Of a stretch of DNA of 64,000 nt, positions 36,438 through 51,848 are shown piece by piece; positions within the stretch are counted from its first letter, which is position 1, and each line of letters opens with the position of its first letter. This stretch comes from Planctomycetota bacterium (GTDB taxonomy: Bacteria > Planctomycetota > SZUA-567 > H5-PLA8). Under the pieces are notes generated by a model. It did not search any database. It was not told the DNA's origin and worked only from the letters and a program-made list of their open reading frames with translations. The stretch lies in assembly GCA_045863855.1 (NCBI GenBank), contig BTVV01000022.1:1-64000 (forward strand), read 5' to 3'. A program made the position numbers and the translations under genes.

Positions 36438-36487
36438 GTAAATGGTATACCCGGGAGGATTCGAACCTCCGACCTCAACCTCCGCAG
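36438..36487. repeat. att site, left copy: 50-bp direct repeat equal to the 3' half of tRNA-Arg(GCG)
   Basis: gtaaatggtatacccgggaggattcgaacctccgacctcaacctccgcag, identical to 51777-51826. Confidence 0.95.
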
Positions 36488-36755
36488 ACAAGGCCAAGCA
36501 TCTAACCCCAATCACTCCCTTCACGCATATCCTTACCTCGAAAGGCTTTTGCATAGAATCAAAAACCCGTGGCCGTCATCAGAACAACCCCTAATTAACC
36601 TCAAAAGTGGGACCGTATTTGGCCACTTTCCCGATTTGGCCGAGCTGGCCGAGTTGTGGCCGAGCCTCACGCGCGCCGATCGCGCCGAGATCCTGCGCCG
36701 CGCACACGACCTTGCGGGAGAGAAGAGAGAAGCTCCCCCTCCCCCCTTAAATTGA
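36488..36755 (+). other. Detached 3' end of the integrase gene (in frame with int after circularisation)
   Basis: The att repeat reads VNGIPGRIRTSDLNLRR in both places; this frame stays open for 88 more codons. Confidence 0.7.
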
Positions 36756-36796
36756 TAGATACCAACCCCTTGCGCGCTTTTCGGCCTGCTTTTCCT

Positions 36797-36959
36797 GCAC
36801 ACGAAACACACGAACACCCCCTCCACTAACTATACCTATAATTCATGCTCCTACCCTCACTTACACGATTTCACCTGGATGTTTGGGAGCCTAAGGAAGG
36901 GAATAAATTTGGGTATAGTAAGTGAGGGGGGTATTCGTGTGTTTCGTGTGTTCGTGTGC
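36797..36959. repeat. Imperfect inverted repeat with CACACGAA iterons (candidate replication origin)
   Basis: CACACGAA at 36798 and 36807; TTCGTGTG at 36934, 36943 and 36951; arms also share CCCCC..CACT.ACTATACC; AT-rich. Confidence 0.6.
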
Positions 36960-37098
36960 TGAACTGGAGCCTCACCGAAGGGGAACGGGCCTACGGGGTG
37001 AAGGTGAAGCGCGGCCGGATCCTTGCGTTTCAAGCCAGGGGCCGGATTAGCTAGAATCGTTAGCTGGAACTTTCGGGGAGGGCACAATTTCGCAGACC

Positions 37099-37141
37099 GA
37101 AGCGCGCTCACTTCCATCGGTTTTTTGGCCAGGAAGGACCC
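37099..37141 (-). repeat. 43-bp direct repeat copy 1 (begins GGGTCCTTCC on minus strand; cos-like)
   Basis: 39/43 identical to 37366-37408. Confidence 0.7.
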
Positions 37142-37365
37142 ACGGCGCCGGCCTGGACGGCGGGGGGGCCTGGCGGCGCCCCACGTTCCGAACCGCGTTC
37201 CGTTCAGCCGCGGAACCGCGCGCGCGGGCTTCGATCCGCAAACCCGTCCGCGATCGCCCTTTGTCTGTTAGCTATGAAACGCCGAGCGCCTTCAATGCCA
37301 AGCAGGGGGCGCGTTCCGGAACCAGGAGAACTTTTGAGGGCCTGGGGTCTGGGATGCGAGAAGCT

Positions 37366-37408
37366 GAAGCTCGCTCCCTTCCATCGGTCTTTCGGCCAGG
37401 AAGGACCC
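37366..37408 (-). repeat. 43-bp direct repeat copy 2
   Basis: 39/43 identical to 37099-37141. Confidence 0.7.
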
Positions 37409-37518
37409 GCGCTCATTCCGTCGCACAACGGGACACATCTCGGCGGTCCGTTCGGCAACTCGCATAGAGGGGCGCGGGGCACAGCGCGAGCGCAGACGAC
37501 TGCGCGGGCAAGACGCGC

Positions 37519-38040
37519 TTACTCACCCGCTTCGCCTTCGTTCAACATCCCATGCGGAACGTACGGAACCGACAGCGCGCGCACCAGATCCCAAAGCACC
37601 CCCACCGCGCCATGCAGCGCCAGGACGGACACCAAGCACAGCGCCAGGCCCAACGACGCCCCGGCCTTCGCCAAGACGCACGCCGTTGCGCTCCAGGCCT
37701 CGGGGAGCCACGGCGCCGACCAGACGCACCAGCCCAGCCACAGGACCGCGTACAGCGCCGCGGAATTAAGCAGCCACGACGCGCACCAGAGCCACGCCAG
37801 AGCCCAGCGGCCGGCGATCCGGCGCACACGAATATCGAGCGGCTGCATGGCCACGGCCTCCACCTTGGCCATCGATTGCGCCGCCAGGATCGCCTCTTCG
37901 TTCAGGCGGTCGCGTTCGGCTCGATACGCCTTTTCCTGCAGCGCGCGCAACGCATCGCGCTTGGCCTGCTTCGCCTGGCGCACCGGATCGAGCGGCGCCG
38001 CCTTTTCGTCCAGCTCACCTGCCGCCGTCGCTTCGTTCAT
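37519..38040 (-). CDS. Hypothetical membrane protein (element)
   Basis: Charged helical N-terminus plus hydrophobic C-terminal segments; ATG overlaps the upstream stop. Confidence 0.55.
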   Translation of the reverse strand: MNEATAAGELDEKAAPLDPVRQAKQAKRDALRALQEKAYRAERDRLNEEAILAAQSMAKVEAVAMQPLDIRVRRIAGRWALAWLWCASWLLNSAALYAVLWLGWCVWSAPWLPEAWSATACVLAKAGASLGLALCLVSVLALHGAVGVLWDLVRALSVPYVPHGMLNEGEAGE

Positions 38041-38432
38041 GGCCTTGTGCCTCCATCGAAACGGCCCGCGCGATCGTGCAGCCCCAGCCACGCCCGCGCA
38101 CGCTCGGCCGCCGCGGCGAACCAAGCGCGCCGTATGACCAGCACGCCCCGCGCATCGACGCCGGCCGCCTCGTCCTGAAAGCGCCAGCCCGCGAGCGCGC
38201 CGTACAGGCACACCAGCCACACCGCCGGCGAGAGCGCCACCCATACCAGCCAGGCCGCCAGAGCCGCCGGAACGCGCCACAGACGCCGCCAAGGGGGAAA
38301 GGCGAACCAGGCCCAGCCCGCGACGGCCGCCGAACCTAGGAACAGCACCGCCCCGTACAGGCACAGCACCAACACCAGATAGACGGCCGCCACGAAGGGA
38401 GCCGCCAGCGCGCAAAGCGCCCACGTCTTCAA
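38037..38432 (-). CDS. Hypothetical membrane protein (element)
   Basis: About three hydrophobic segments; TTG start overlaps the upstream stop. Confidence 0.55.
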   Translation of the reverse strand: MKTWALCALAAPFVAAVYLVLVLCLYGAVLFLGSAAVAGWAWFAFPPWRRLWRVPAALAAWLVWVALSPAVWLVCLYGALAGWRFQDEAAGVDARGVLVIRRAWFAAAAERARAWLGLHDRAGRFDGGTRP

Positions 38433-39688
38433 TGGTTAGCCCAAGCCTGCCGGCGCGAGCGGTAGCCCGTCCACGCCGCCGCACTCTGAGCCTGCAGCAC
38501 GTCATGCTTCAATTGCTCCGCCTCCGAACGCGCCGCACGCATATCCGCGGCAGCCTTCTTTCGAACTTCATCGCGCTTTTCAGCCGTGGCCACCTTCTTC
38601 TCAACGGCTTGCTCGGCGTACCCGCGCCGGCGCTGCTGTTCGGCCGCTTCGCCGCCCCACCAATCCGTCATTTTTTCGAACGGATTTCGAAGCGCCATTT
38701 TCGTATTCACATAGTCGCTGTTCATCTGCCGTTCGGGATCGATCGCCTTACTCAGCTCATCATCCAATAGCTGATTGCCTGTCTTCTGGTCGAGCTGCGA
38801 AGTCCACATGCCGCGGCGCTGCCGCTCTTGCTGCAACAACGCTCCCGGGTCCCGGCCAGTCAACGCCTTGAAGTGCTCGCGAGACCGCGAACGCAGCTCG
38901 CCGCGCTTCTTCACTCGATCCGCTACATCTTCGTCCGTACCCGAAATATCCACGTCCATGTATTTCTTCAGCGCGAAGCTGACCGACCCGCGCGCCTCAT
39001 CGGCCGTCGCCTGCATCCGGAGCGCTTCCTTCGTCACCAGGTCCTGGCGTATCCCGTGCTTGCGCGCGGTATCGAAGCGGACGGATTCATTCTGCGCGCG
39101 CTTGACGCCGGCGTCGTGAATCGCAAGCCCGATCTCGCCGCCCGCCATGGCGGCCTCTAGGTAAATCGATCCCATTCGAAGCGCGCCGCGAGTTTTTTGC
39201 AGCGCACGCGCCCCCATGCCGGCATCCAGACCCAGCCGCTGGCCCAGCACCGAACGCGACAACGAGGCCGCAGCCTTATCGGCAAAGTTTTTCAGCACCT
39301 TCGACTGCAACGCCCGCGCCGCTTCGTCCACCACGCTCTTGACGACCCCCAACGATGCCGCGCTCACCGTCCCGCCGCGCGCGGCGGTGTTGGCCATCAT
39401 TTCGATGCCCATGCCGATATTCTGGATCGGATCGATGGAGCTCCTAAATTGCCGCCGCGCGTTGCGCGCCTCCCCGGCGCCAGTCCGCGAGATCCCTAAG
39501 AAGCCGCGCAACGCCTCTGCGTCGCCAGATCGCGCGCCGCCTTGAATCGCGCGCCGCGCCGCGGCGCGAACGTGCGAAGGCACCGAGCCCCCGCCTTTCT
39601 GCATCCGCAGAATCCGCGTACCCAGCCCGCGAAGGATGCCTTCTTCCCGACTGCCCTTGGCCACGTTGCACCGATCCTTTCGAAGCAT
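38429..39688 (-). CDS. Hypothetical helical protein (tape-measure/ejection-protein-like composition)
   Basis: 419-aa Ala/Gly/Arg-rich helical ORF in the leftward operon; function inferred only. Confidence 0.55.
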   Translation of the reverse strand: MLRKDRCNVAKGSREEGILRGLGTRILRMQKGGGSVPSHVRAAARRAIQGGARSGDAEALRGFLGISRTGAGEARNARRQFRSSIDPIQNIGMGIEMMANTAARGGTVSAASLGVVKSVVDEAARALQSKVLKNFADKAAASLSRSVLGQRLGLDAGMGARALQKTRGALRMGSIYLEAAMAGGEIGLAIHDAGVKRAQNESVRFDTARKHGIRQDLVTKEALRMQATADEARGSVSFALKKYMDVDISGTDEDVADRVKKRGELRSRSREHFKALTGRDPGALLQQERQRRGMWTSQLDQKTGNQLLDDELSKAIDPERQMNSDYVNTKMALRNPFEKMTDWWGGEAAEQQRRRGYAEQAVEKKVATAEKRDEVRKKAAADMRAARSEAEQLKHDVLQAQSAAAWTGYRSRRQAWANH

Positions 39689-39736
39689 GCGCCCTTCGAA
39701 GCACGGCGCGTTTTACCCATGCGGGAACCGGCCCGA

Positions 39737-39919
39737 CTACGCGCCCGCGCGCCGCAGGCCTTTGAGGCTCTTGAGCGCCTTCGGTTTCTTGAGCGGCTTC
39801 GGGCGGGCCAGCCCCGCCACCTTGGACCGGAACAAGGCCGCCTGCCCCAGCGGCGACGGCGCGCGCGAACGCGCGCGAACTTCCGCAAATATCCGGGCGC
39901 CACTCAACAGCTTGCGCAT
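39737..39919 (-). CDS. Small basic hypothetical protein
   Basis: 60-aa Lys/Arg-rich ORF co-oriented with the operon. Confidence 0.3.
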   Translation of the reverse strand: MRKLLSGARIFAEVRARSRAPSPLGQAALFRSKVAGLARPKPLKKPKALKSLKGLRRAGA

Positions 39920-40028
39920 CGCCAGGCCCTTTCATTTCAAAGCGGCGGGGCGCGCCGTACGCGGACCCACCCACGCCGCCGCCGGCACACGCCGGCTTAC
40001 TCTTCGCCGCGCACCCTTTCAGACCGGC

Positions 40029-40066
40029 CGGCGGCCCTGCCGGCCTTTTAACCGGCAGGGCCGCCG
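40029..40066. terminator. Strong hairpin (15-bp perfect stem) within the leftward operon
   Basis: cggcggccctgccgg-ccttttaa-ccggcagggccgccg; no clear U-tract. Confidence 0.45.
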
Positions 40067-40238
40067 CAACTTGCCGCTTCTCCCAGCGGTCGGGGCTCAC
40101 GCCTACGCCATCGAAAACGCATCGTGAGCGGCGCGTGTTTTGGGCTAGGAGCTGACGGCCCACAGGGCACGCCAGGGGGGACGCCTCGGGCCGCCACTAC
40201 GCGCTAGGCGGAGCCTCATATCCCCTCGACTAAAATTG

Positions 40239-40967
40239 CTACTTCCGATCGCGCTCCCAATCCCGGTGAACCTGGCGAAGGGCTTCCGTGAGTTTCATGC
40301 CCGTACGACGGGCGCGAGCGCGAGCGAGGGCGAGCAGATCCGCTTGCCGCGCGTGCTTGGCTTCGTGGCGCTTCTGGAGTTCCGACTTCACGCCAGGTCG
40401 CACCTTGGGCCGCGAGGCGCGCAAGAACGAGGCATGCAGCTCGGGCTTTTCGCGCGATAGGTACGACATCGCGGCCGCCAACGTGCACCCGCGCTTTTCC
40501 GCACGCTCCCGCGCCTCCGTCATAAACGGATGCGCGCTAAGCAACCGAAGAGGCGCCATTTGAATGCGCGGGCCAGACGCCAGGGCTTTCGGATCTTCGT
40601 CTTCGTCGTCTTCGTTGTCGTCGTCGTCTTCTTCGTCGTCGTCGTCTTCGTCGTCTTCGTCGTCTTCTTCGTCGTCGTCGTCTTCGTCGTCGTCGTCTTC
40701 GTCGTCGTCTTCGTCGTCTTCGTCGTCCTCGTCGTCTTCGTCTTCGTCGGCTTCGTCATCTTCGTCGGCTTCGTCGTCGCTGATCGGCAGGGGCGGGCGC
40801 CCCACGCTCTTCAGGTACGCCTCGTGCAGCGCCGGCTTCTCACGCGCCAACGCGCGGATCGCTTGCGCGAGCGAGCATTTCTTTCGTTCGGCGAGGGCTT
40901 CCGCCTGGCGCATGAATTCATGCTTGGTGCCCAGCAGGCCCTGGGGCGTGCGGCTTGTTCTTGGCAT
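40239..40967 (-). CDS. Protein with repeated ~40-aa helical modules separated by a poly-Asp/Glu tract
   Basis: HEFMRQAEAL..KCSLAQAIRALAREKPALHEAYL and HPFMTEARER..GCTLAAAMSYLSREKPELHASFL; RBS AGGAG. Confidence 0.75.
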   Translation of the reverse strand: MPRTSRTPQGLLGTKHEFMRQAEALAERKKCSLAQAIRALAREKPALHEAYLKSVGRPPLPISDDEADEDDEADEDEDDEDDEDDEDDDEDDDDEDDDDEEDDEDDEDDDDEEDDDDNEDDEDEDPKALASGPRIQMAPLRLLSAHPFMTEARERAEKRGCTLAAAMSYLSREKPELHASFLRASRPKVRPGVKSELQKRHEAKHARQADLLALARARARRTGMKLTEALRQVHRDWERDRK

Positions 40968-40997
40968 GGCTGGCTCCTAAAAATGTTCGCGGACTGT

Positions 40998-41192
40998 TCA
41001 GCTTCCGCGCGTACGCCGATGCAACGGGATGGACGTCACAAACGCCTGATGCAGATCCGGCCTGGCACGTGCCAATTCACGAATGGCCTGCGCGAGCGAG
41101 CACCGCTTCCGCTCCGCTTGCGCGCGGGCCTCGAGCATGAACGCATGCGTTCCGCCCGTGGGGTCTTGGGGCTCGGTGCTGACGCGTGGCAT
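40998..41192 (-). CDS. Single-module paralogue of the 40239-40967 protein
   Basis: HAFMLEARAQAERKRCSLAQAIRELARARPDLHQAFV; same ATTTTTAGGAG leader and MPR start. Confidence 0.75.
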   Translation of the reverse strand: MPRVSTEPQDPTGGTHAFMLEARAQAERKRCSLAQAIRELARARPDLHQAFVTSIPLHRRTRGS

Positions 41193-41233
41193 GAGTCACT
41201 CCTAAAAATCGGGAACCGCGTACGCGCCGACGG

Positions 41234-41947
41234 CTACTCAGCCGCCGGCGCTACGGCTTCGACTTCAGCTTCGGGTTGCGGTTCGGTCTGGACTTCCGGC
41301 GCCGGGTTCAGCGCGGCTCGCGCGGCGCCCAGGGCCTCGGCGATTAAGTCCCTTTTGCGAAGCGCCGACCGTTCCGGGTTGCGCGCGCGCGTACGCTCGA
41401 GGAAATCGACTTGCACCGGTAGCGGTTCGCTGCCCAACGCCGCCGCAAGCGCCGGATGCGCCACCAGGTCTTGGGCGAGCCGCGGAAGCCCCATAGCAGG
41501 GCCGCACAACCGTTGAATCACATCATGCGGCGAGTGACCTTCGCGCGGATCCAACATGCCGCCGCGCAGCGCCGCAAAAGCCCGGATCGCGCCGGCCACG
41601 TGCGCGGCCAACTCGCCAAGCAAGGCTTGCCGTTCTGCTTCGTCGGCCTGGTCTGCCGCGTCCAGCGGCGCGGACAGCGCCGCACGCGCGATCTTTTCGG
41701 CATCGCGCATCTGCTCATCGATTTCGAGCAGCACAAGACGAAGCGCCTCCGCATCGCGCCGGGCCTCGAAACATTCTTTTTCCGCCGCGGCCTCTTCCTT
41801 CGGCGCGCCCTTGCCGGTCCGTACGCGCTGCTTGCGCAGATCCTCCGCTTTCGCATCCGACGCGGCCGCGGCCTCTTCGTACTCGGCGAGCTGCGCTTCC
41901 AGCTTCACGCGCTCGAAGGCCAGCTCTTGCAGTCGTTCGGCACTCAT
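41234..41947 (-). CDS. Coiled-coil hypothetical protein (element)
   Basis: E/A/R-rich heptad-like N-terminal half; AGGAG RBS. Confidence 0.65.
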   Translation of the reverse strand: MSAERLQELAFERVKLEAQLAEYEEAAAASDAKAEDLRKQRVRTGKGAPKEEAAAEKECFEARRDAEALRLVLLEIDEQMRDAEKIARAALSAPLDAADQADEAERQALLGELAAHVAGAIRAFAALRGGMLDPREGHSPHDVIQRLCGPAMGLPRLAQDLVAHPALAAALGSEPLPVQVDFLERTRARNPERSALRKRDLIAEALGAARAALNPAPEVQTEPQPEAEVEAVAPAAE

Positions 41948-41974
41948 GGTTCTAGCTCCTATCGTTCGGGTTCA

Positions 41975-42451
41975 TTAAACGGCACGCGCGAGCGGAGCGC
42001 ATCGGTGCGCTTGGTCCGTTTTGCGCGCGTTCTGTTCCACGGGGAAGACTTCGAACTGGTCCAGCGAGATCACAACGACGGCCCGCGCGTCGGCCGGCAG
42101 CTCGCCATCCGGCGCCGGCAGATCCCAGCCACGCGCCGAGAACAGCACCGCGAAACACCGGGAGCCCAAGGCCGCGCTGCACCCACGGTAGAAGGTGCTC
42201 TTAGCTACCGGCAACCCCAACTTACGCAAAGCAGCGAGCGCTTCGGATGCGTTCAGCACCGGAGCCGCGCCCGCGGCTTCGGTCGCGGCTTCGCGCGCTA
42301 CTTCCGGCCCCAGCATCGGAGCGAGCACGCGCACCAGCGCACACGCAAGGCGTCGCCGGCCACGATCGCGCAGACGACTGCGCACCGGCGCAAGCGCCGC
42401 GGTCAGTTCGGCGAGACCCGGCTTTAGAACTTCAGTCCGCAATCGAAGCAT
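41975..42451 (-). CDS. Hypothetical protein with possible HTH
   Basis: VLNASEALAALRKLGLPVAKSTFYR resembles an AlpA/MerR-like HTH. Confidence 0.45.
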   Translation of the reverse strand: MLRLRTEVLKPGLAELTAALAPVRSRLRDRGRRRLACALVRVLAPMLGPEVAREAATEAAGAAPVLNASEALAALRKLGLPVAKSTFYRGCSAALGSRCFAVLFSARGWDLPAPDGELPADARAVVVISLDQFEVFPVEQNARKTDQAHRCAPLARAV

Positions 42452-42747
42452 TGATGCTTCGGCATCCGGCGGCCGATGACCTGGGGGTAAGACGCGGTCT
42501 GCAGCGGGTGGCTGGGCTGCGCGCACTTCGGACACGGCGGGCCGCTCGGCGCCGCCTGCGCCGCGACGGGCACGACCGGCGCCGGCTGCACCAGCGCCGC
42601 GGCCGGGACACCAATGCGTCGCTTCGCCTTGCGCTGCGCTTCGATGGACGGATGCAGGGGCGGAACCGCCAGCGAGGGGGGCCGGCTGCCGGCGTACGTG
42701 CGTCGAATCGGGCCGACTGGTTCGGCGCCGTGTGCGGTGTAGCTCAT
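42424..42747 (-). CDS. Zinc-ribbon protein (Ogr/Delta-like)
   Basis: C-terminal CPKC...HQCFDCGLKF; AGGAG RBS; first gene of the leftward operon. Confidence 0.55.
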   Translation of the reverse strand: MSYTAHGAEPVGPIRRTYAGSRPPSLAVPPLHPSIEAQRKAKRRIGVPAAALVQPAPVVPVAAQAAPSGPPCPKCAQPSHPLQTASYPQVIGRRMPKHQCFDCGLKF

Positions 42748-42839
42748 GACTTTTCTCCTGGGGGCAACCTCTTTCCGTGCCGCGGGACTGCGCAGACGTC
42801 TGCGCCAGATTCGATCGAGCACGGGCGAGGTTCATGCGC

Positions 42840-42897
42840 GCATAGGACCACAGGCGGCGGCTGAAATCGACGCGGCCAAACCGCAGTCATTCCGCAA
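42840..42897 (-). promoter_or_regulatory. Duplicated promoter/operator, leftward copy
   Basis: 33/34 identity to 46134-46167 in inverted orientation, plus an equally spaced GTGGTyyyATGC box. Confidence 0.7.
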
Positions 42898-43125
42898 CCC
42901 GTCTAACCCAAGCCAGAAAAATGACTTACGTGATCATGAAACAAAGCCGGAAGCAGGCTCTATTTTTCTGCGGGCGGTTGCGGTATAAGGCGCGGTTGCG
43001 CTGGACACCTGAAGCCACGCGCGGAACGCACGCGACAATCGAAGATCGCCCCACGGGGAGGCCGTAAGCGCAAGCTCGGCACCGACGCCGCCCGGCGAAG
43101 GTTCAGGCTCCCCAGGGGCGGCCCT

Positions 43126-43701
43126 ATGCCGAGATGCTGCATGTTCTTCGCACCCGAACTCTCTCCCAGGGAACGGAGCGTTCTCCGCTTCGGGTCACTC
43201 GCGCTCCCGACGCATAACGGTCTTCGGTACTTCCCAGTATCCTTGGTTGGGCACAAGCGATTCGAGCACCTATTTTCTCAAACCTGGAAACGGATTAATC
43301 AGCCTGACCGCTCCGTGATATTGCGCCACTGGAAGACGCAGCCCGGAACACCCAAGGATCCGTACGCGCCTGAAATCATTTACAGCTCTACTGGGTGGCG
43401 CAATAGGCCAATGGCGGGGTCCTGCTCCAGCAACGGCAATGAATTACAATTTAATGCGACCCTTATCCAGCGGATTCCCAATGAAGCGGCCAGGGCCTTG
43501 GTTGCCCACGAACTTGCCCACGCCTTTTTAGAGGGCATGCGCCACCAAAAAAACTTTGTTCTCGCTAAGCACGAAGAAGAAGAATTCGTTGTTGATCAAG
43601 TCATGAAAGCTCGGTGGGGTTTCGACGATACGCTGATCACCCAATGGGTGGAGACACATCCCGAGATTCACGACCTGCTGCATGAAGCGAACAGCGCATA
43701 A
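43126..43701 (+). CDS. HEXXH zinc metallopeptidase-like protein
   Basis: LVAHELAHAF plus downstream EEEE; visibly lower GC than its flanks. Confidence 0.65.
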   Translation: MPRCCMFFAPELSPRERSVLRFGSLALPTHNGLRYFPVSLVGHKRFEHLFSQTWKRINQPDRSVILRHWKTQPGTPKDPYAPEIIYSSTGWRNRPMAGSCSSNGNELQFNATLIQRIPNEAARALVAHELAHAFLEGMRHQKNFVLAKHEEEEFVVDQVMKARWGFDDTLITQWVETHPEIHDLLHEANSA

Positions 43702-43891
43702 GCGAAAGGAGGCCGCCTATCGACTGAACCGCCCTACGCGCGTTAGAGCGCGCGGGAGTAAAGAAGCGGGGCCGACCAGCGATGACACGCCGGCCGACCC
43801 CTAAGCAAGCCACCAGTCAGAGCCTGGCAGCTTACCTAGCCGTGAGTATCGGCCAAGGTGCTGCCCTTTCATCAGAGGAAAGGGGCACACG

Positions 43892-44917
43892 ATGCACCGC
43901 CCAAACCAAGCACCGCAGGACCCCCCCGACGATTCCGAAGATACGCAAAGCATAGAAGTGCTTTTGAACCATCCCGAACATCCCGACCGGACCACGCCCG
44001 GCTGGCGCAACCTGCTGCGCGCACCGAACGGGCACCTGCTGACCCGCGCGGACCTGAAGAAAGAAAAGCGGAACCTTGCGCAGGCGCTGTTGGGCTTCAA
44101 GGCCTTCCCGGATCTAAAGGACGACCTTCACCCCGGATTCCAGCGCGCCATGGAGCCGCGTATCTGGATCCTGTCGCTCCTGCTGCGCGGTCGACGGCCC
44201 GTTCCGGCGGCTTGGTACGACGGCTATGTAGAGCACGTTCACCACGTCTGCAAGCGTCAGGAGGAGCCCGAACCACCCGACCGGTTGAAAGCCGACCGGA
44301 AGGAGCTGGCCTTCGCGCTGCACTACGCCGAACAGCACCCCGAGGCCGACGGGTGCGACCGCTGGACGCGGCTGAACCTGGAAGCGCGCATCCGGATGAT
44401 CCGGCACTTCCTGCGGCGCGGCGTGACGCGCCTGGCGTACACCCGGATCGCAAACCGGATCATCCGGCACACCGCGAAGCGGGGCCGCCACGGCCTTCCG
44501 GCGAGCAAGCCCGCACACACGCCGGACGGAGCGCCGCGCGACTGGAAGGAGGCGCACCGCGAAGTGCTCCGCTGGGAGCACCTGTTTCGCGAAGTCCCGC
44601 ACCTGGCCGAAGAGCATCCGGCCTTTCTGGACAGGCTGAAGCGCAACAACGCGCCGCCGGCCGAACCCGAGCGCACGCCGGCGAAGCCGCCGCTGCCCCC
44701 GGACGCCAAGCCGGGAGGCATTCAAGGCCCCGAATGCTACGAGCTGGACCCGCGGCACGATCCGCTGGTCTGCAAAGCCACGGGCGACGAACACGAATGG
44801 GTGCCGCACGCCGAGCGCGGGCACGCCTGCTGCTTGTGCGGGGTTCATTACAAGCCCCTAGATGGCGGGCCGGCGACGCCCGAGGACCTCTTCGACCTGG
44901 AAGGGGGTGCCGTTTGA
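43892..44917 (+). CDS. Hypothetical protein with Cys/His-rich C-terminus
   Basis: 341-aa ORF with element-like codon usage; C..C...HEW...CCLCG. Confidence 0.6.
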   Translation: MHRPNQAPQDPPDDSEDTQSIEVLLNHPEHPDRTTPGWRNLLRAPNGHLLTRADLKKEKRNLAQALLGFKAFPDLKDDLHPGFQRAMEPRIWILSLLLRGRRPVPAAWYDGYVEHVHHVCKRQEEPEPPDRLKADRKELAFALHYAEQHPEADGCDRWTRLNLEARIRMIRHFLRRGVTRLAYTRIANRIIRHTAKRGRHGLPASKPAHTPDGAPRDWKEAHREVLRWEHLFREVPHLAEEHPAFLDRLKRNNAPPAEPERTPAKPPLPPDAKPGGIQGPECYELDPRHDPLVCKATGDEHEWVPHAERGHACCLCGVHYKPLDGGPATPEDLFDLEGGAV

Positions 44918-45183
44918 GCCCTTCCCTGGATTTGTTGGAGCGGTACGACGTGGCGCGGCGGAAGTATCCGGGCTGGGCGTTTCTCATGCAGGACGATCGC
45001 GACCCCGCGCGGGGCTGGCTGATTCGTGAAGTGGGGCGCGTGGGCTTTGTGCATCTTCCGTTCCCGTGGTCGGACCACGAGCGCCACCTTGCGCGGCTGC
45101 TTTGGCAAGGCGTCAGCGTAGCGGTTACGACGCCGCTGGCGGATGAATTGCCGGCGCCCGCGCGGCTGGCGCTGGAAGGGTAG
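44914..45183 (+). CDS. Small MutS domain-I-like protein
   Basis: TTG overlapping the upstream TGA; LERYDVARRKYP...PFPWSDHERHLARLLWQGVSVAV. Confidence 0.5.
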   Translation: MSPSLDLLERYDVARRKYPGWAFLMQDDRDPARGWLIREVGRVGFVHLPFPWSDHERHLARLLWQGVSVAVTTPLADELPAPARLALEG

Positions 45184-45195
45184 CGCGTTAAAGTC

Positions 45196-46125
45196 GTGCC
45201 GTCGCCGGATAGCCCGGCCAGGCGAAGAGGGCCACTCCAAGCCCCTGCCGGCGACGGTCTTTTCTTGGAGCGCGCAAGGAGGCGCGAACGTATGAACGAC
45301 GATGAACTTCGGAAGGTGTTCCTCCCCCTGGTCCACCGAGCACGGCAAGCCGATCGCCACTTTGACGTGCTATTCCTTTGGATCAAGCGCCTCGATACAA
45401 CATGGCTGGCGATACGCTTTGCAGAACTGTCCGCAGAGGCGCAAGGCGCGCTGGTGGAAGGCGCGCGCTACGGGCTCCTTGACTTGCTTATTTCGTTCGA
45501 TCTCACCGAAAAGGGGCTTTCACGGGCGGGACTGGCCCAGGTCCGCGGGGATGTATTTTCGCCGCCCGGAGGCCTGCCTCAACTGCTGGCCAGCCACCTT
45601 GCTTCAAGCGGTCTGGTACCAGAGGGCTCCACCCTACACAGCGCCCTTCCGATCAGAGTCAGGCTTTCGAGTAGAGGCCGCGACGCCGAGCAGACTTGCC
45701 CCGACGTGGTTTCCATGCGCACGGACTACTGCGCGGAACCCGAACGCGCACGGATTGCCGTTGTGGAGCTGAACAAATCGGCACCCGAACCAGCCCTGCA
45801 CGCGCAGACCGTCAACATTCAACACGTGGGGCAGGTCCGCGCCGAGACGGTGAATCTCCCGGCACCGCCCGCCCAAGCGCAGACGTCTGCGGAGCCGCTT
45901 GCGGACCTTGAAGCGTGGATTTTCGATCAACTGAAAGGCGCCTATCGAACGGCAAAAGAACTTTATGGGGCCGCCAAGGGTGATGCAGGGCTGATTAAAA
46001 AATCAGTAGGGAGAGAAAAACGAACCATCGAAGGGGCTTTATCTAACCTCAAGAAATCAAAGCGGATAGCTCTTAAAAGAGGCTCAGGCTACTACCGCCC
46101 CGACGCACCGCCCAACGCCCGCTAA
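45196..46125 (+). CDS. Hypothetical protein with C-terminal winged HTH (candidate element regulator)
   Basis: IFDQLKG.YRTAKEL...TIEGALSNLKKSKRIALKRGSGYYR; start may be ATG 45292. Confidence 0.6.
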   Translation: MPSPDSPARRRGPLQAPAGDGLFLERARRRERMNDDELRKVFLPLVHRARQADRHFDVLFLWIKRLDTTWLAIRFAELSAEAQGALVEGARYGLLDLLISFDLTEKGLSRAGLAQVRGDVFSPPGGLPQLLASHLASSGLVPEGSTLHSALPIRVRLSSRGRDAEQTCPDVVSMRTDYCAEPERARIAVVELNKSAPEPALHAQTVNIQHVGQVRAETVNLPAPPAQAQTSAEPLADLEAWIFDQLKGAYRTAKELYGAAKGDAGLIKKSVGREKRTIEGALSNLKKSKRIALKRGSGYYRPDAPPNAR

Positions 46126-46133
46126 ACACGCTA

Positions 46134-46191
46134 TTGCGGAATGGCTGCGGTTTGGCCGCGTCGATTTTTAGCGCGCCCCGTGGTTCCATGC
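46134..46191 (+). promoter_or_regulatory. Duplicated promoter/operator, rightward copy
   Basis: ttgcggaatggctgcggtttggccgcgtcgattt..gtggttccatgc just before the replication operon. Confidence 0.7.
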
Positions 46192-46214
46192 CCTCAGTTC
46201 ACGAGGGCATACCG

Positions 46215-46442
46215 ATGACTTCGCTTCAAGTAGCGCAACGCGTCACGACTCGCGAAGCGGCAGACCTCTTCAAGTGCGAACAGGCCCAAGCGCTGGTCCT
46301 GCTCAAGGCTGCACACATTCCGCACGACCGCGTAGGGCACGGCCAATACCTCTGGCACGCCGAAGCCGTGCTCCGCTTCGCCGAAACGCTCGCCGCGTCC
46401 GAACGCGCCGCGGCGCCGGCCGCCGTCCAGGCCCAAGGATAA
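46215..46442 (+). CDS. Small AlpA/Xis-like DNA-binding protein
   Basis: VTTREAADLF...RVGHGQYLW..EAV. Confidence 0.55.
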   Translation: MTSLQVAQRVTTREAADLFKCEQAQALVLLKAAHIPHDRVGHGQYLWHAEAVLRFAETLAASERAAAPAAVQAQG

Positions 46443-46500
46443 GGGAAAAAAGAAACGCGCGGTCGCCGCCAAGCAGACCCGCGCGCTTCGAAGAACGAAC

Positions 46501-47001
46501 ATGGGAACTATACTCCGCTACCCGTTCCGCCCGCAAGAGGGCAGCCCCGCCGAATCCGAGCGGAAGCTGGCCGAACTCCAAGCCCGCGGCTGGAAGCTGA
46601 CCCGCATGGGCTTCCAGCTCCCCGAACGCGACCAGGCCCGCGGCCTCGAACCCGAGCCCGACGCCGAAGAAGTTCGCCTCTGCACGCTCTTCCTGTACGT
46701 CCACGCGCTGCCGCGCGAATCCTTCAACGAACGCGCAGACAGCTACCGGTTGAAGCATGACGTGGAGCGCTGGCTCGAGGCCGCCGGCTGCAAGCGCCAC
46801 ATTTCCAACGGCGCCTTGATCGTCGCCGCCGTCCGCATGGGCTTCCCGTTCCGCCTCTTCGACCCGCCGCACCAGAAGGACGCCTTCTTCCGCATGGGCC
46901 TGTTCTGGCGCTGGAACGGTTCAAGCGAAGTGCCGCTCCCCGTAGACCTCTGGCCGGCGCATATCCGCAACGGCCGCACCGCTCAAAGGGCGCGCCGATG
47001 A
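46501..47001 (+). CDS. Mobile-element hypothetical protein
   Basis: SYRLKHDVE...ISNGALIVAA motif, which I recall from phage/satellite replication regions. Confidence 0.6.
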   Translation: MGTILRYPFRPQEGSPAESERKLAELQARGWKLTRMGFQLPERDQARGLEPEPDAEEVRLCTLFLYVHALPRESFNERADSYRLKHDVERWLEAAGCKRHISNGALIVAAVRMGFPFRLFDPPHQKDAFFRMGLFWRWNGSSEVPLPVDLWPAHIRNGRTAQRARR

Positions 47002-47225
47002 AGCCCTCCCTCCCAAAAGATATGCCGGTGCTGTACTGGCGCTTTCCCAACGGCAAGGTCCTGCCGTTCTTCTCGCCCTTCGCCAGCTACGCCGAGAACC
47101 GCCGCTTGCGCGCCGGCCTGCGGCTGCACCGCGAAGCCTGGGGCTTCAAAAAGGGCGAGGGCGAGATCGTCTCGCACCTGCACGGCCAGTTCGTTCCGTG
47201 GCCGCCGAAGGACGGGCAGCCATGA
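46998..47225 (+). CDS. Small hypothetical protein
   Basis: ATGA-coupled to neighbours on both sides. Confidence 0.5.
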   Translation: MKPSLPKDMPVLYWRFPNGKVLPFFSPFASYAENRRLRAGLRLHREAWGFKKGEGEIVSHLHGQFVPWPPKDGQP

Positions 47226-47785
47226 GCGCGCGCGTCACCTTCGAAGAGGCCGTCGCCAAGCTCTGCGCGCATCCCAAGTGGAGCTGGTCGGCGCGCTGGT
47301 GGCGCTTGGGCGAATTGATCGTGGCCACGCGGGACAAGGCCTGGTCGGTCAAGGATCCCGCGAAGCTGGTGCCCGTCGGCGTGACGGCGCTGGGCTGCAC
47401 CGGCATCGACCAGGCCGGGCGCTTGGCCTGGATTTTTTGGGATCTCGACGTTTCCCACGGCGCCCCGATCACGCTTTCCGACGGAGAGAAGGTCCAGCCG
47501 TACGCGACGGTAGAGGAAGCGATCGCCGACGCGCGCCGGCTGCGCAAAGCGCTGGACGGTCACGCCGAGATCCGCTTCAGCAAGAGCGGGAACGGCGTGC
47601 ACGTGCGGTACTTCGTGGGCGCCGAGCGCAACCTGCCCGGCCATACCGGCCCCGAGATCGCGAAGACCTTCGCGCGCAAACTGAAACTGAAGGCCGACCG
47701 CTCGCCCTTGGGCCGCCAGGCCGCTTGGCTCTGGGCGCGCACACTCCCGCCGCGGGCCTTCGAATTGATTGAGGACTGCGCATGA
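47222..47785 (+). CDS. AEP-superfamily primase catalytic domain
   Basis: WIFWDLD (DxD) and FSKSGNGVHV (SxxGxH) motifs. Confidence 0.7.
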   Translation: MSARVTFEEAVAKLCAHPKWSWSARWWRLGELIVATRDKAWSVKDPAKLVPVGVTALGCTGIDQAGRLAWIFWDLDVSHGAPITLSDGEKVQPYATVEEAIADARRLRKALDGHAEIRFSKSGNGVHVRYFVGAERNLPGHTGPEIAKTFARKLKLKADRSPLGRQAAWLWARTLPPRAFELIEDCA

Positions 47786-50019
47786 CGCCCGAAGAAATGG
47801 CCAAGCTCCCGCCTGAAGTCATGCGCCTCTTCGAAGACGCTGAACGGGACAACCTAAGCGAGCCCACCCCAGACGCGGGCGCGCGCGAGATAATGCCTGC
47901 CGGCCGCCCCGCCGGCAGCTCGCGCGCGTCCGTCCCGCCTGGCGAGGCCATGCCCGACGCCGAACGCGCCGCGCGCTACGCCGCGAAGGTGAACGGCGCC
48001 GGCGAAGGCGGGCGCAACGACGCGCTGAACGCGCTGGCCTATCGGCTGCTCGAACTTTTCAACCTGACCGAAGAAGAGCACCGCGGGCTATGCCTCGACT
48101 TCGCCGCGCGCTGCGCGCCGCCGATCCCCGAACGCGAAGCGCTGGCCACGACGGGGAGCGCCTGGAAGGGCGCGCACCGCAAAGGGCGCGCCGGCGCGGC
48201 GCGGACCGAACCGAAGCGCAAGCGCTCGAGCGCCACGCCGCCGGCGAAGCGCGCGCGCGGCGTCCCGCAAGGCGAGGCCGCGGCCTTCCTGGACGCGGCG
48301 TTGCAAGAGAAGCTCGAAACCGTGGCGGCCATGAAAGGCACCTCACGCGACAAGGCGGCGCTGGCGCTGCTGGAAGAGATTGCCGCGGCGCTGGCCGGCG
48401 CGCCGGCCGTTACGCAAGAGCGCGTCAAGAAAGAAGCATGCAAAGCGCTGGACCTGAACGCGCGGGCCTTTGATCGCGCGCTGCGCGAAGCGAAGCGCAA
48501 AGACGACGGCGCCGACGACGACGGCGAAGGCGCCGGACGCCCGAACTACCAGGACCTGGCGCGCGAGCTGCTGCGCGCCGAAGGCTACGGCGAACCCGGC
48601 GCGCTCTGCCGCTTGCGTCACCTGAAAGACGATTTCTTCACCTGGCAGGGCACGCACTACCGGCGCGAGACCGATTCGACCTTCAAGGCGCGCGTCTGCC
48701 GTTTCCTGCAAAGTTTCCCCGGCGCTTCGCATCGCGTCTCGCACCAGATGGTTTCCAACGTGGCCTTGAACCTGGTCGGCTTGATCTTCCTGCCCGACGA
48801 AACCGAACCCCCTTGTTACCTGGAGGAAAGCGAGATGCGTTCCAATCCCTACCTGGTCGCCATGCGCAACGGCGTGCTGGACCTTCAGGCCTTAATGGAA
48901 GGGCAACCCGACGTGCTGAAGCCGCACGGCCCGACGTTCTTTAACCTGAACGCGCTGCAATATGACTACAAGCCCGGCGCGACGTGCCCGAAGTTCTTGA
49001 AGTACCTGGAGGAAGTGCAGCCCGACGCGACCGTGCGCGAGCTGCTCCAGGAATGGGCCGGCTACCTGCTGGTGCCGCTGACCAAAATGCACGCCTTCAT
49101 GCTGATCGACGGCGAAGGGAGCAACGGTAAAAGCGTTTACCTGGCGGCGCTGCGCGCGCTGCTGGGCGAGGAAAACTATTCGAGCGTGCCGTTGCAGGCC
49201 TTCGCCGCCGAGCGCCCCTTCGCGCTGGTGGATACGCTGGGCAAGCTGGCCAATTTCGACTACGACGTGACCTTCATTGAAATGCGCGAAGAAGGCCGCT
49301 TGAAGTCCTGGGTGTCCGGCGAACCCGTGTTGGTCGAGCGGAAAGGCCGGGACGCCATGAGCATCCGCCCCACGGCGCGGTTGACCTTCGCCTGTAATGA
49401 CCGCCCGTTTTTCCGCGACAAATCGAAGGGCATCTGGCGGCGCATGCTCTACGTCCGCTTCAATCAGACGATCGGCGAAGAGCAAAAGATCGCGGGCATG
49501 GACGAACCCGGCTGGTGGCTTGAAGCCGGCGAGCTGGAAGGGATGTTTCTTTGGGCCGTGGAAGGCCTGAAGCGCCTGCTGGCGCGCGGGCGCTTCCTTG
49601 AACCCGAGGCCTGCAAAAACGACAAGGCCGAATACAAGGACGACCTGAACCCCGCGGCCACGTTCTTGCGCGAGCACGCCGAAGAGCAGACCGGCGCCGA
49701 GACGGCCACGCGCGAGCTGTACGAAGCCTATGAACTTTGGTTTAGAGAGAACGGGCACCAACCCAAGTACAAACTGACGAAGGCGCATTTCGGGCGCGAA
49801 GTGCGGCGCATCTTCCCCGCCGTCGAGCTGACCAAGCACGCGCGGACCAAGCTGGTCATGGTTCAGCCGTCGCTCTGGGAAGCCGCCAAGGGGGCGCAGC
49901 CGCGGGAAGAGACCGTCCGCGATCGAGTCTGGATCGGCCTGCAATTCCACGCCGAGGGCGTACCTTGCCCGAATGAAGCGCACGCCGAAGCGGAGGGCGC
50001 CGGCCATGCTGCCGATTGA
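47782..50019 (+). CDS. PriCT + D5-type SF3 helicase (P4-family primase C-terminal type)
   Basis: GEGGRNDAL (PriCT), MRNGVLDL, Walker A GEGSNGKS, FACND.P, GIWRR. Confidence 0.9.
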   Translation: MTPEEMAKLPPEVMRLFEDAERDNLSEPTPDAGAREIMPAGRPAGSSRASVPPGEAMPDAERAARYAAKVNGAGEGGRNDALNALAYRLLELFNLTEEEHRGLCLDFAARCAPPIPEREALATTGSAWKGAHRKGRAGAARTEPKRKRSSATPPAKRARGVPQGEAAAFLDAALQEKLETVAAMKGTSRDKAALALLEEIAAALAGAPAVTQERVKKEACKALDLNARAFDRALREAKRKDDGADDDGEGAGRPNYQDLARELLRAEGYGEPGALCRLRHLKDDFFTWQGTHYRRETDSTFKARVCRFLQSFPGASHRVSHQMVSNVALNLVGLIFLPDETEPPCYLEESEMRSNPYLVAMRNGVLDLQALMEGQPDVLKPHGPTFFNLNALQYDYKPGATCPKFLKYLEEVQPDATVRELLQEWAGYLLVPLTKMHAFMLIDGEGSNGKSVYLAALRALLGEENYSSVPLQAFAAERPFALVDTLGKLANFDYDVTFIEMREEGRLKSWVSGEPVLVERKGRDAMSIRPTARLTFACNDRPFFRDKSKGIWRRMLYVRFNQTIGEEQKIAGMDEPGWWLEAGELEGMFLWAVEGLKRLLARGRFLEPEACKNDKAEYKDDLNPAATFLREHAEEQTGAETATRELYEAYELWFRENGHQPKYKLTKAHFGREVRRIFPAVELTKHARTKLVMVQPSLWEAAKGAQPREETVRDRVWIGLQFHAEGVPCPNEAHAEAEGAGHAAD

Positions 50020-50278
50020 ACGGCCGGCGCCGCTTGCGCCGATCGCGCTGCACCCGCCGCACGCCTTGGCCGTTGACATTTACGAGGCCGCGCGCATGTT
50101 GGGCGTCCACGCGAACACGATCCGGCGCGAGATCGACCGCGGGCACCTGCGCGCCGTGAAGATCGGGCGCGTCTGGCGCGTGCGCGTCGCCGAGCTGCAC
50201 AGTTACCTGAAGCGCAACGAGCAGATCCGCGAGCCGGACCCCGAGGCCTTGGACGCCGATGCAGACGACGCGCGTTAA
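50006..50278 (+). CDS. xis: Excisionase-family HTH protein
   Basis: EAARMLGVHANTIRREIDRGHLRAVKIGRVWRV. Confidence 0.85.
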   Translation: MLPIERPAPLAPIALHPPHALAVDIYEAARMLGVHANTIRREIDRGHLRAVKIGRVWRVRVAELHSYLKRNEQIREPDPEALDADADDAR

Positions 50279-51848
50279 AAACCGGAAGACCGGCCAGCGC
50301 GGCTGGCGCTTCCGGTTCATGGATCCGGCGACGGGACAGCGCCGCCGTAAGACGTTCTGGTATGCCGAGCGATCGGACGCCGAGCGCGCCTACGTGAAAT
50401 TCCTGGACAGGCGCCAGGCGATCGCTGACGGCCTGCCCGAAACGCGCGGCTGGCGCACGCCCTATACCGAACTGGTCGCACGCTTCCTGAAGGAAGCGCC
50501 GATCACGACCGAGCGCCGGCGCGCGCACCTGAAGCGGATCCTGGAACGCAACGAGCTGCGCTTGCAGACCGGCGCGGATCTCGCGCACCGCGGGCGCCTG
50601 TCCGCACGCTGCCAGAAGCTGCGCGAAGCGCGCAGCTCGCACTACGTCGTCTTTTCGATTCAAGCGCCGTTGAAGCAGCTCGCGCGCTGGGCCGCGGAAG
50701 TGACGCTCTTCCCGTTCGATCCGCTGGCCGGCTGGAAGCGCCTGCCCTGGGGCGGAACCCAGCGCACGCGGCACGCCTTCACGCCCGAAGAGATCGCCGG
50801 CATCTTGCGCGCGTCCGAAGAGTACGACACGCTGCTCTTGAGGCCGCACCCGTCCACGATCGTTTACCTTACGCTGCTCTTGACCGGCAACCGGCCCAGC
50901 GCGGTACTCGGCGCGACGGTCGGCGACTTCGATGCCGAGCGCGCGCGGCTGCACCTGCCCGCCGGCCAAGGCAACAAGCGCAACGGCGCGGCGCTGCTGC
51001 CGCCCGCCTTCGTGCCGATCCTGCGCGAGTACCTCAAGATTCGCGGGCGCCTGCCGGCCGACGCGCCGCTGCTGGTGAGCCCCGAGGGCGCCGCACCCGA
51101 CCGCCTGAACATCGGCGACGATTTCCGGCGCGCCCTGGTGCTGCATAAGGTCCGCGAGCTATGGCCGGCGGAGCTGGACGCCACGCAAGACGCCGAGCCC
51201 GCGGAAGTGGCGTATCGGATTTACTACAACAAGCCGCGCGGCTTCGACGGCCGCAAGCCCACCGACCCGGCCAAGGTCGCCGCGCGCAAGCGCAAGCTGG
51301 CGGCCGTGGATCTGCTGGCCGAACGGCTGGGCCCGGACGTGAAGCGCTGGCTGATCGGGCGCGACATGTACGCGCTGCGCAAGACGCACATTTCGTGGGC
51401 GCGGCGGCTGGCCAATCCCGACGCCGTGCGCGAGCAAGTCGGGCACGCGCCGCGCGACATTGAAGAGAAGCACTACCTGGACCTGGTGGACCCGCGCGAG
51501 AGCGCCCTTGCGGTCTGGGACGTTTTAACGGGGGCGCGGTCGCTTTACCCGAACCGGGCCGAGAAAACGCGCCAGGCGCCACCGGAAGCGCTGGCGAAGG
51601 CCGCCGGCGCGGAAGGCCAAACGTTTCAGGACGGGGAAGCCATCGGAACGGACGCCGCGGGCGCGCCGCATGACGGTGGCGCCGCCCGTTCGGGTGATAT
51701 TCTGGGATCGGATTTGGCCACATTAAACAAAAACGCCCCTGCGGAAGGGGCGTTTATTGCTGCTAAGTCTTGTGCTGTAAATGGTATACCCGGGAGGATT
51801 CGAACCTCCGACCTCAACCTCCGCAGGGTTGCGCTCTATCCAGGCTGA
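50259..51848 (+). CDS. int: Tyrosine recombinase/integrase (runs through att; ends antisense within the tRNA)
   Basis: Arm-binding-like N-terminus; TGNRP (R), YALRKTH (HxxR variant), VGHA, KHYL (Tyr). Confidence 0.88.
   Translation: MQTTRVKNRKTGQRGWRFRFMDPATGQRRRKTFWYAERSDAERAYVKFLDRRQAIADGLPETRGWRTPYTELVARFLKEAPITTERRRAHLKRILERNELRLQTGADLAHRGRLSARCQKLREARSSHYVVFSIQAPLKQLARWAAEVTLFPFDPLAGWKRLPWGGTQRTRHAFTPEEIAGILRASEEYDTLLLRPHPSTIVYLTLLLTGNRPSAVLGATVGDFDAERARLHLPAGQGNKRNGAALLPPAFVPILREYLKIRGRLPADAPLLVSPEGAAPDRLNIGDDFRRALVLHKVRELWPAELDATQDAEPAEVAYRIYYNKPRGFDGRKPTDPAKVAARKRKLAAVDLLAERLGPDVKRWLIGRDMYALRKTHISWARRLANPDAVREQVGHAPRDIEEKHYLDLVDPRESALAVWDVLTGARSLYPNRAEKTRQAPPEALAKAAGAEGQTFQDGEAIGTDAAGAPHDGGAARSGDILGSDLATLNKNAPAEGAFIAAKSCAVNGIPGRIRTSDLNLRRVALYPG
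51725..51755 (-). terminator. Intrinsic terminator for the tRNA, supplied by the element
   Basis: Minus strand AAACGCCCCT-TCCGC-AGGGGCGTTT then TTGTTT. Confidence 0.7.
51777..51826. repeat. att site, right copy (50 bp)
   Basis: Identical to 36438-36487. Confidence 0.95.

Follow-up and report, generated by a model that had tools for sequence, protein, structure and literature searches.

The 64-kb window analysed here, i.e., the whole stretch of 64,000 nucleotides from contig BTVV01000022.1 of a Planctomycetota bacterium, holds a 15.3-kb integrated element in a tRNA-Arg(GCG) gene. All coordinates are positions in the window, and the open reading frames (ORFs) of the element were scanned for families with Pfam, PHROGs and NCBIfam. 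The element is probably an intact phage satellite, whose scaffold-tip proteins would redirect the head assembly of a helper phage and whose 411-aa protein would replace the tail-core protein of that helper. Its ends and its left operon, which encodes these proteins, are composed of the following features:

36438–36487: left att core, a displaced copy of the 3′ half of tRNA-Arg(GCG)
37519–38040, minus strand: 173-aa protein, hydrophobic in its C-terminal half, no family match
38037–38432, minus strand: 131-aa membrane protein with three hydrophobic segments, no family match
38429–39664, minus strand: 411-aa helical protein, likely a tape-measure or tail-core protein
39737–39919, minus strand: 60-aa basic protein, no family match
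40239–40967, minus strand: 242-aa protein with three scaffold-tip copies and an acidic linker of ~60 residues
40998–41192, minus strand: 64-aa protein with one scaffold-tip copy
41234–41947, minus strand: 237-aa protein with a long helical hairpin
41975–42451, minus strand: helix-turn-helix (HTH)-like protein of uncertain start (119–158 aa), candidate DNA-packaging redirector
42424–42747, minus strand: 107-aa Pro-rich protein with a zinc ribbon (CxxC...CxxC) at the C-terminus; this gene opens the left operon
51777–51826: right att core
51782–51859, minus strand: intact host tRNA-Arg(GCG)

Borders of the Element

The first-pass annotation, which was made from the sequence alone, described exact 50-bp flanking repeats and a complete element in tRNA-Arg(GCG). 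A repeat search of the window agrees with this description, in that positions 36438–36487 and 51777–51826 form an exact 50-bp direct repeat, the right copy of which spans the intact tRNA gene from its 3′ end to the anticodon; the predicted excision product is a circle of 15,339 bp. In G002, a genome of the same genus, the same flanking genes (89–92% identity) and the same core enclose a different interior of 13.65 kb. The flanks and core that G002 keeps around another interior show that both borders are genuine and that the site has been used more than once. The annotation had also recommended a search for an empty attB in relatives, which was answered in part: an empty site with the flanks of the window was not found (the tRNA is island-free in G001 and G009 but has other gene neighbours), and the site of G002, occupied by another island, fixes the borders. 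The G002 island in this tRNA-Arg site (L020:3611-17314) encodes a small-terminase-like protein of 149 aa, a 483-aa helical protein and a primase-polymerase, and carries xis-int genes of the family found in the window element.

Contigs holding the element from four runs, two of which may be the source of the window, were compared. Neither a circle joint nor an empty-site joint is present in these contigs, which break at the 50-bp repeat and are thus evidence neither way. Depth was similar for long contig pieces inside and outside the element, a comparison that does not serve as a copy-number estimate. In two runs, a nearly unchanged left half accompanies a divergent primase-integrase half, which fits modular exchange. 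Elsewhere in the host genome (G000), 26 tRNA genes are arrayed on a single strand with an acetyltransferase-like ORF among them (L004:8668-13179, i.e., G000:C1:23667-28178). One of the 26 is another tRNA-Arg(GCG); a tRNA-Arg(ACG) was not called in this genome.

Scaffold-Tip Proteins

Regarding head assembly, the 64-aa and 242-aa genes together encode four copies of a helical repeat of ~40 residues, which was modelled as three helices (pLDDT 80). A HMMER search with this repeat against 1.84 billion representatives retrieved 218 proteins at E ≤ 0.001. The 50 listed matches of 290–534 aa were all scanned (one match of 5143 aa was excluded), and 29 contain Peptidase_S49, three Mu-like_Pro and one ClpP, while 17 have no family. 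When 13 of these 17 were run against PHROGs, seven proved to be head maturation proteases, which brings the protease-type total to 40 of the 50. In 53 of 55 long proteins, no more than 25 aa separate the last tip copy from the C-terminus. Of 11 viral loci retrieved with one tip protein, nine likewise have the tip at the end of the S49 gene; two are cut by contig ends and two look like one and the same phage. In one locus (L089), the tip-bearing S49 gene is located between the portal and major head genes. The window copies show 34–57% identity to phage tips over 34–41 aa. The protease-type hosts and the C-terminal position identify the repeat as a tip that belongs to prohead protease-scaffold proteins and that is protease-free and multiplied in the element, where the tip genes have their own ribosome-binding sites.

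Two other islands, at tRNA-Gly and with different integrases, have a free tip gene after a coiled-coil gene (L060 and L099, both on incomplete contigs), and the L099 island additionally has a tape-measure-like gene (phrog_4070, E 5e-4). Short proteins of two to four tip copies with no protease were observed as well (P0007, P0021, P0027, P0043 and others); such proteins likely mark further satellites, the context being known for P0005 (L099) alone. The tip has no Pfam match, no solved sequence relative and no fold match at E ≤ 0.001 among viral models. A phylum-wide search found it in 2 of 401 genomes among 12 scored candidates per genome, a count that says little. The 64-aa gene as a query against longer proteins only returned itself or nothing, and viral-contig scans with the repeat alignment and with the two-tip family gave no locus.

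By analogy, the 64-aa and 242-aa proteins are likely scaffold mimics of the CpmB/Rcm type. In SaPIs, CpmB and the helper scaffold have a C-terminal motif in common, and both bind at one site on the coat (PMC6893505); Rcm of SaPIpT1028 is a second case of scaffold mimicry (PMC12409344). A C-terminal motif common with phage scaffolds was likewise found here. The adjacent 237-aa protein may have a CpmA- or Sid-like role, as a coiled-coil gene precedes the tip gene in the two other islands. Its single-sequence model (pLDDT 68) gave generic hairpin matches only (best Z 10.7), and neither Sid nor Psu appeared among the matches listed, which does not exclude them.

The 411-aa Protein

Regarding the tail, the 411-aa protein shows 27% identity over 370 aa to the product of a gene on a 38-kb prophage contig of G003, with a score of 207 against a mean of 51 and a maximum of 92 in 500 shuffles. 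When the G003 gene was used as the query, relatives were found in 4 of 401 genomes of the phylum, two of them weak. The G003 relative comes after the genes for terminase, portal, head and decoration proteins and has no rival there as a long helical tape-measure candidate, the G007 relative is directly upstream of a 718-aa gene common with the G003 prophage, and the G001 relative is in a 16.5-kb island behind a small-terminase-like gene (labelled by eye). The four proteins of the family align end to end, and the window protein is full length with the conserved C-terminal end of the family retained. A shortened tape measure had been considered as its identity and was rejected, as the relatives are only 418–451 aa long. 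From sequence and gene order, the 411-aa protein is likely a substitute for a tape-measure or tail-core protein, an ejection protein being the alternative. In Vibrio PLE, a satellite tape measure takes the place of that of the helper (PMC12987554). Searches with the 411-aa and 237-aa genes returned the queries alone or nothing, Atlas look-ups gave only leads below 0.9, and a viral-contig scan with the G003 451-aa protein gave no locus.

The left operon had at first been described as a module of small unknown proteins. It is now largely readable and holds genes derived from phage morphogenesis, along with several ORFs that have no family. As that annotation also stated, there are no recognisable capsid, portal, terminase or conjugation genes: in the scans, none of the element ORFs matched a capsid, portal, terminase, lysis or relaxase family, or a coupling protein or type IV secretion system (T4SS) family (Pfam and NCBIfam for the latter two). 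PADLOC recognised none of 13 element ORFs.

A Palindrome Shared with a Second Island and a Prophage

Four copies of a 14-bp palindrome are found in the element:

37491–37504: palindrome with one mismatch
42369–42382: palindrome with one mismatch
42791–42804: exact palindrome CGCAGACGTCTGCG, just upstream of the zinc-ribbon gene
45878–45891: exact palindrome, inside the 277-aa gene

The exact sequence occurs six times in the 6.93-Mb genome, i.e., twice in the window element and four times in a second island, at tRNA-Tyr on contig C44, and 9 of 10 one-mismatch copies are also within these two islands. Among 210 palindromes of equal composition, no other exceeds three copies in the genome. Each of the two islands has a copy shortly upstream of its zinc-ribbon gene. 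The only other genome with the exact palindrome, out of 20 from the order, is G003, whose three copies are all on the prophage contig. The G003 prophage contains six copies at one mismatch and nine dispersed copies at up to two mismatches. It encodes a ParB-like protein (E 5e-23), within the first codons of which one palindrome lies, and its gene before TerL shows 28% identity to a gene of the C44 island. A palindrome scan of viral contigs yielded 125 stretches, mostly with single copies, and the tip domain was absent from the retrieved DNA of the palindrome-bearing viral stretches.

Dispersed parS-like sites are a feature of N15. In the simplest reading, the palindrome would be a parS-like site for a helper protein that has been copied by satellites, and its sharing suggests a helper family. 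If true, a satellite with the dispersed palindrome of its helper would represent cis-acting helper mimicry; a literature search found no paper on such a satellite. The scaffold-derived domain, the tail-module relative and the prophage-shared palindrome all support the earlier proposal that the element is a helper-phage parasite in a Planctomycetota host.

The Split Integrase and the xis-int Cassette

The integration genes are arranged across the att cores as follows:

36489–36755, plus strand: C-terminal piece of the integrase (88 codons), which continues the int frame beyond the att core
50006–50278, plus strand: excisionase (HTH_17; PF12728, E 3e-13)
50259–51848, plus strand: tyrosine integrase, 529 aa in the integrated form, running through the right att core into the tRNA gene in antisense (phrog_1, E 2e-20)

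These matches confirm the xis and int genes of the first-pass annotation, which had missed the att-crossing frame of int. When joined across the core, the integrase becomes an in-frame protein of 611 aa with a short C-terminal helical domain of ~30 residues, which is conserved and has no Pfam match. The integrase family is found in 15 of 16 other genomes of the host family (weak matches counted), where it sits at many tRNA species and heads islands of very different cargo; on account of this spread, the terminal xis-int pair is a lineage cassette. The notion that this gene order is specific to the element was therefore rejected, the same cassette being present in many unrelated islands of the host family.

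The integrase ORF enters the tRNA gene in 14 of 19 loci with a called tRNA and ends before it in five. All seven elements with both ends available join in frame, and six of them finish in the helical domain, namely those of the window, G010, G006 (tRNA-Arg), G013, G014, and G006 (tRNA-Sec, with a distant integrase and a join made on a 19-nt core). A profile of the domain detected 18 copies in 8 of 20 genomes. The antisense T-loop motif of a tRNA is present in the open frame upstream of seven of the 18 copies (background 6.6%; three of the seven were used to build the profile), and two further copies follow a whole tRNA-Glu. Integrases that cross attP are known from Mx8 and SSV (PMC4383910), and the C-terminus swap of the Mx8 integrase on integration alters site specificity (PMC6070905). 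From the sequence, the domain gained on excision is predicted to act as a switch of the Mx8 type, which may set the direction of the integrase.

Many integrase tails share a conserved LAAGAE-like motif ~40 residues past the catalytic tyrosine and before the att core (51500–51776 in the window, and relatives). Another xis-int pair of the family (51% identity) is located by a tRNA-Gly at a contig end of the host genome (L003:3863-5614, G000:C100), and its integrase stops 145 bp short of the tRNA.

Right Operon and Control Elements

The remaining features comprise the replication genes, their neighbours and putative control sites:

36798–36950: 46-bp inverted repeat with CACGAA iterons (two left, three right), likely the replication origin
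37099–37411: two 46-bp direct repeats (89%) in a 763-bp non-coding stretch, possible packaging or origin site
42864–42897, minus strand: 34-bp element heading the left operon
43126–43701, plus strand: SprT-like HEXXH metallopeptidase in a lower-GC stretch (PF10263, E 5e-6, over the cut-off), putative cargo or anti-repressor
43892–44917, plus strand: 341-aa protein
44914–45183, plus strand: 89-aa ORF, no family match
45202–45268, plus strand: int-alpA-like structured RNA (RF02996, 31.3 bits, under the cut-off of 35.8, E 0.004)
45292–46125, plus strand: 277-aa protein with a winged-helix-like C-terminal end, possible regulator
46134–46167, plus strand: 34-bp element heading the right operon
46215–46442, plus strand: 75-aa excisionase-type HTH protein (AlpA in the first-pass annotation; weak, under the cut-off), likely activator
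46501–47225, plus strand: two small ORFs of 166 and 75 aa, no clear family
47222–47785, plus strand: 187-aa protein, likely an AEP-type primase catalytic subunit
47782–50019, plus strand: 745-aa D5/SF3 helicase with a primase C-terminal domain

Of the labels first given to this rightward module, that of SF3 helicase stands: the 745-aa protein matches TIGR01613, the P4-family primase C-terminal domain, at E 4e-51. There is less behind the AlpA and primase labels. The 75-aa protein matches only HTH_17 and TIGR01764 at E 0.003–0.004, under the cut-off, and the 187-aa protein has no family match in the Pfam, PHROGs and NCBIfam scans; the DxD and His motifs of the latter presumably mark an AEP primase. 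The C-terminal 137 aa of the 341-aa protein show 55% identity to a gene product of the tRNA-Tyr island in the same genome, and the region upstream of the 341-aa gene folds no better than shuffles (z −0.96 twice). A viral-contig scan with the element helicase gave no locus.

The 34-bp elements of the two divergent operons are 97% identical. The iteron inverted repeat, the spacer of which is only 51% AT, comes after the replication operon in the circle. The loop of the int-alpA-like RNA (CTCCAA) could form six base pairs with TTGGAG at 44935 or at 45265, i.e., 300 bases upstream of and immediately downstream of the RNA. The CI RNA of P4 pairs with its targets in a comparable layout; by analogy, the int-alpA-like RNA may be a CI-like regulator, which is offered as a lead only.

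Further Islands and Prophages

The second island of the host genome (L002:1271-18618, G000:C44) is 17.3 kb long with 55-bp repeats at tRNA-Tyr, and it contains zinc-ribbon, HTH-like and coiled-coil genes together with a capsid-like (426 aa), a chaperone-like (241 aa) and a tape-measure-like (448 aa) gene. The capsid-like gene is in the slot that the scaffold tips occupy in the window element, with which the island has one gene and the palindrome in common. A third island at tRNA-Arg(TCT) (G000:C46:17329-33700) carries genes labelled by eye as DnaB-like helicase, small-terminase-like, coiled-coil and tape-measure-like (519 aa). The 16.5-kb island of G001 (L247:159-16750, G001:C3), which holds the 418-aa relative of the 411-aa gene, is located at tRNA-Arg(CCG); a tRNA-Asp was called within it, and an intC-like peptide comes directly behind the sense-strand tRNA.

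As a candidate helper type, the 38-kb ParB-encoding prophage of G003 (L234-L235, G003:C233) was noted. The host assembly itself has an HK97-like prophage module and a second one (labels by eye; G000:C67, 32.5 kb, and G000:C1:40340-62600), and both virion modules are without the tip domain and without the palindrome. The host assembly yielded neither a GpA-type terminase nor a lambda-type portal. In L089, L100 and G003, TerL is followed by a gene for a zinc ribbon.

Proposed Mechanism and Alternative Explanations

In the satellite reading, the helper would induce the two divergent operons, which have the 34-bp upstream element in common, with the palindrome as a site read by the helper and the int-alpA-like RNA keeping the right operon attenuated until induction. 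Xis and the 529-aa integrase would excise the element, and the resulting circle is predicted to encode the 611-aa form, whose added helical domain would bias the integrase to integration in the next host. Replication of the circle by the primase and D5 helicase would start at the iteron inverted repeat. The two tip proteins, with one copy and three copies of the domain and presumably assisted by the coiled-coil partner as CpmB is by CpmA, would compete from the inside with the helper protease-scaffold for coat, leading to small or satellite-favouring heads and fewer helper virions.

Several points weigh against this scheme. No helper, particle, excised circle, packaging signal or expression was seen, no small terminase was recognised in the element, and the host assembly (94% complete) holds no tip-bearing phage. 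The G003 prophage, which has the palindrome and the 411-aa relative, encodes a protease-capsid fusion with no detectable tip; because of this, the head clue and the tail and palindrome clues point to different known phages. Coat binding by the tip would follow from its position and the CpmB analogy. The family of the 411-aa protein has no PHROG match, its profile matches none of the tape-measure-like proteins tested, and the tail position in G003 was read from gene order among neighbours with no family match. As for the integrase, the G002 join is an open extension of 71 codons with no helical domain. Three of the six domain-bearing joins were located via the domain, so that only their frame counts as an independent test, and the G013 and G014 joins link different contigs. 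Open frames alone are weak evidence, as random frames here stay open over 70–90 codons in 33–39% of cases, and the protein-like identity by codon position (0.53/0.62/0.34 among the 18 domain copies) comes from a set chosen by protein profile.

Some of these observations would also suit an assembly-blocking defence island, in which the tip and 411-aa proteins would be dominant-negative decoys that jam the heads and tails of incoming phages, and the element would replicate and move like a satellite or via generalised transduction but build no particles for itself. The lack of a recognised small terminase or packaging gene and of a tip-bearing helper in the host assembly is in line with such an island, multivalent tips joined by an acidic linker could tie coat subunits together, and the two membrane proteins and the metallopeptidase could be abortive-infection cargo. 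However, the 411-aa gene is full length with the conserved C-terminal end of its family, sister islands add small terminase, chaperone and tape-measure-like genes as a packaging-oriented kit, and PADLOC was empty; defence as the main function is considered unlikely. A decayed prophage, immobile and with the left operon as a late-operon remnant after loss of the terminase, portal, protease, capsid and tail genes, is improbable. The zinc ribbon, scaffold tip and tail-module gene are late-region parts in head-then-tail order, and TerL is followed by a zinc-ribbon gene in L089, L100 and G003, whereas no fragments of core virion genes are present, the ORFs and both att cores are intact, and the tip has been duplicated into new genes with their own ribosome-binding sites. 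Moreover, the protease-free arrangement recurs in islands with other integrases, and two runs keep the left half nearly unchanged beside a divergent primase-integrase half. It is more improbable still that the element is an integrative element, conjugation-mobilised or simply selfish, with phage-like genes as passengers. The xis-int cassette does head many non-phage islands with restriction-modification and helicase cargo, yet no relaxase, coupling protein or T4SS family was matched, and a coherent morphogenesis-type operon makes up half of the element.

Beyond the satellite reading of this one element, a broader and rather doubtful proposal is that of a Planctomycetota satellite family that hijacks both ends of the virion. 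In such a family, protease-free multivalent copies of a tip common to several unrelated head-protease families would re-template the heads of many helpers, and a full-length tail-core protein would be swapped in. Copies of the palindrome bound by the helper ParB would let the island sense the helper or ride on it, and the direction of the integrase would be set by the domain that excision adds. A literature search found no satellites described in Planctomycetota, and the element would provide a concrete hijack kit for satellites in this phylum. The unannotated, portable tip domain would mark helper phages and parasites alike and could lead to satellites that escape present gene-set tools. In addition, the Mx8-type split integrase appears as a family-wide cassette with a conserved putative switch domain, not an oddity, and many natural integrase pairs are available for the old question of the role of the swapped C-terminus.

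Comparison with Known Systems

Gram-negative phage-inducible chromosomal islands (PICIs) have int to the left of the regulator and divergent from xis-pri-rep, with interference genes downstream of ori in the same direction as rep (PMC6092414). The element resembles them in its size of ~15 kb, its tRNA att site, an HTH regulator before the primase-helicase, the absence of core virion genes, and an iteron origin after the replication genes in the circle. Its 15,339 bp and 50-bp core agree with PICI dimensions, and core structural and lysis genes are absent, though relatives of a scaffold tip and a tail module are present. The gene order departs from that of PICIs: int is downstream of and co-oriented with pri-rep, morphogenesis genes are in a divergent operon, and no AlpA or TerS family was matched. 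The cf-PICI set, i.e., an own capsid, portal, protease and terminases, was not found among the element ORFs.

P4 has divergent operons with zinc-ribbon and coiled-coil genes on the morphogenesis side. The element is similar to P4-like satellites in the D5/SF3 primase-helicase (TIGR01613), the divergent operons and the candidate CI-like RNA, and has zinc-ribbon and long coiled-coil genes on its morphogenesis side as in P4 itself. It differs in that the primase is apparently a separate gene and the integrase, split by att, is at the operon end; the Sid, Psu and Ogr/Delta families gave no match at E ≤ 0.1 in Pfam and PHROGs.

As in SaPI CpmAB and Rcm (PMC6893505 and PMC12409344), small helical satellite proteins copy the coat-binding C-terminal end of a scaffold, with a partner gene alongside. 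In contrast to these, there is no sequence match, four copies are distributed over two genes, the binding is predicted, and the source of the domain is protease-scaffold proteins of S49, Mu-I, ClpP and other types. As in Vibrio PLE (PMC12987554), a satellite gene is related to a helper tail-module protein and similar in length to the phage version. Here, no chaperone or hub gene was recognised alongside, the tape-measure identity is deduced from position, and the proposed head redirection would be internal, whereas PLE uses an external scaffold. The integrase is similar to those of phages Mx8 and Mx9 and to SSV-type integrases in that attP lies within the integrase gene and the C-terminus is exchanged by integration (PMC6070905 and PMC4383910). 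It differs from them in being spread across the lineage as a cassette, at many tRNA species, and in its conserved helical domain of 30 residues, a putative switch.

No publication with this combination, this tip domain or this host phylum turned up in a search that most subscription journals lay outside of; supplements of satellite surveys may list such islands. The earlier suggestion of an undescribed satellite family is plausible inasmuch as neither the PICI nor the P4 gene order is followed. Each mechanism has a precedent, namely CpmB/Rcm, the PLE tape measure and the Mx8 integrase. The element is likely a satellite variant that is new in itself but assembled from parts of familiar kinds.

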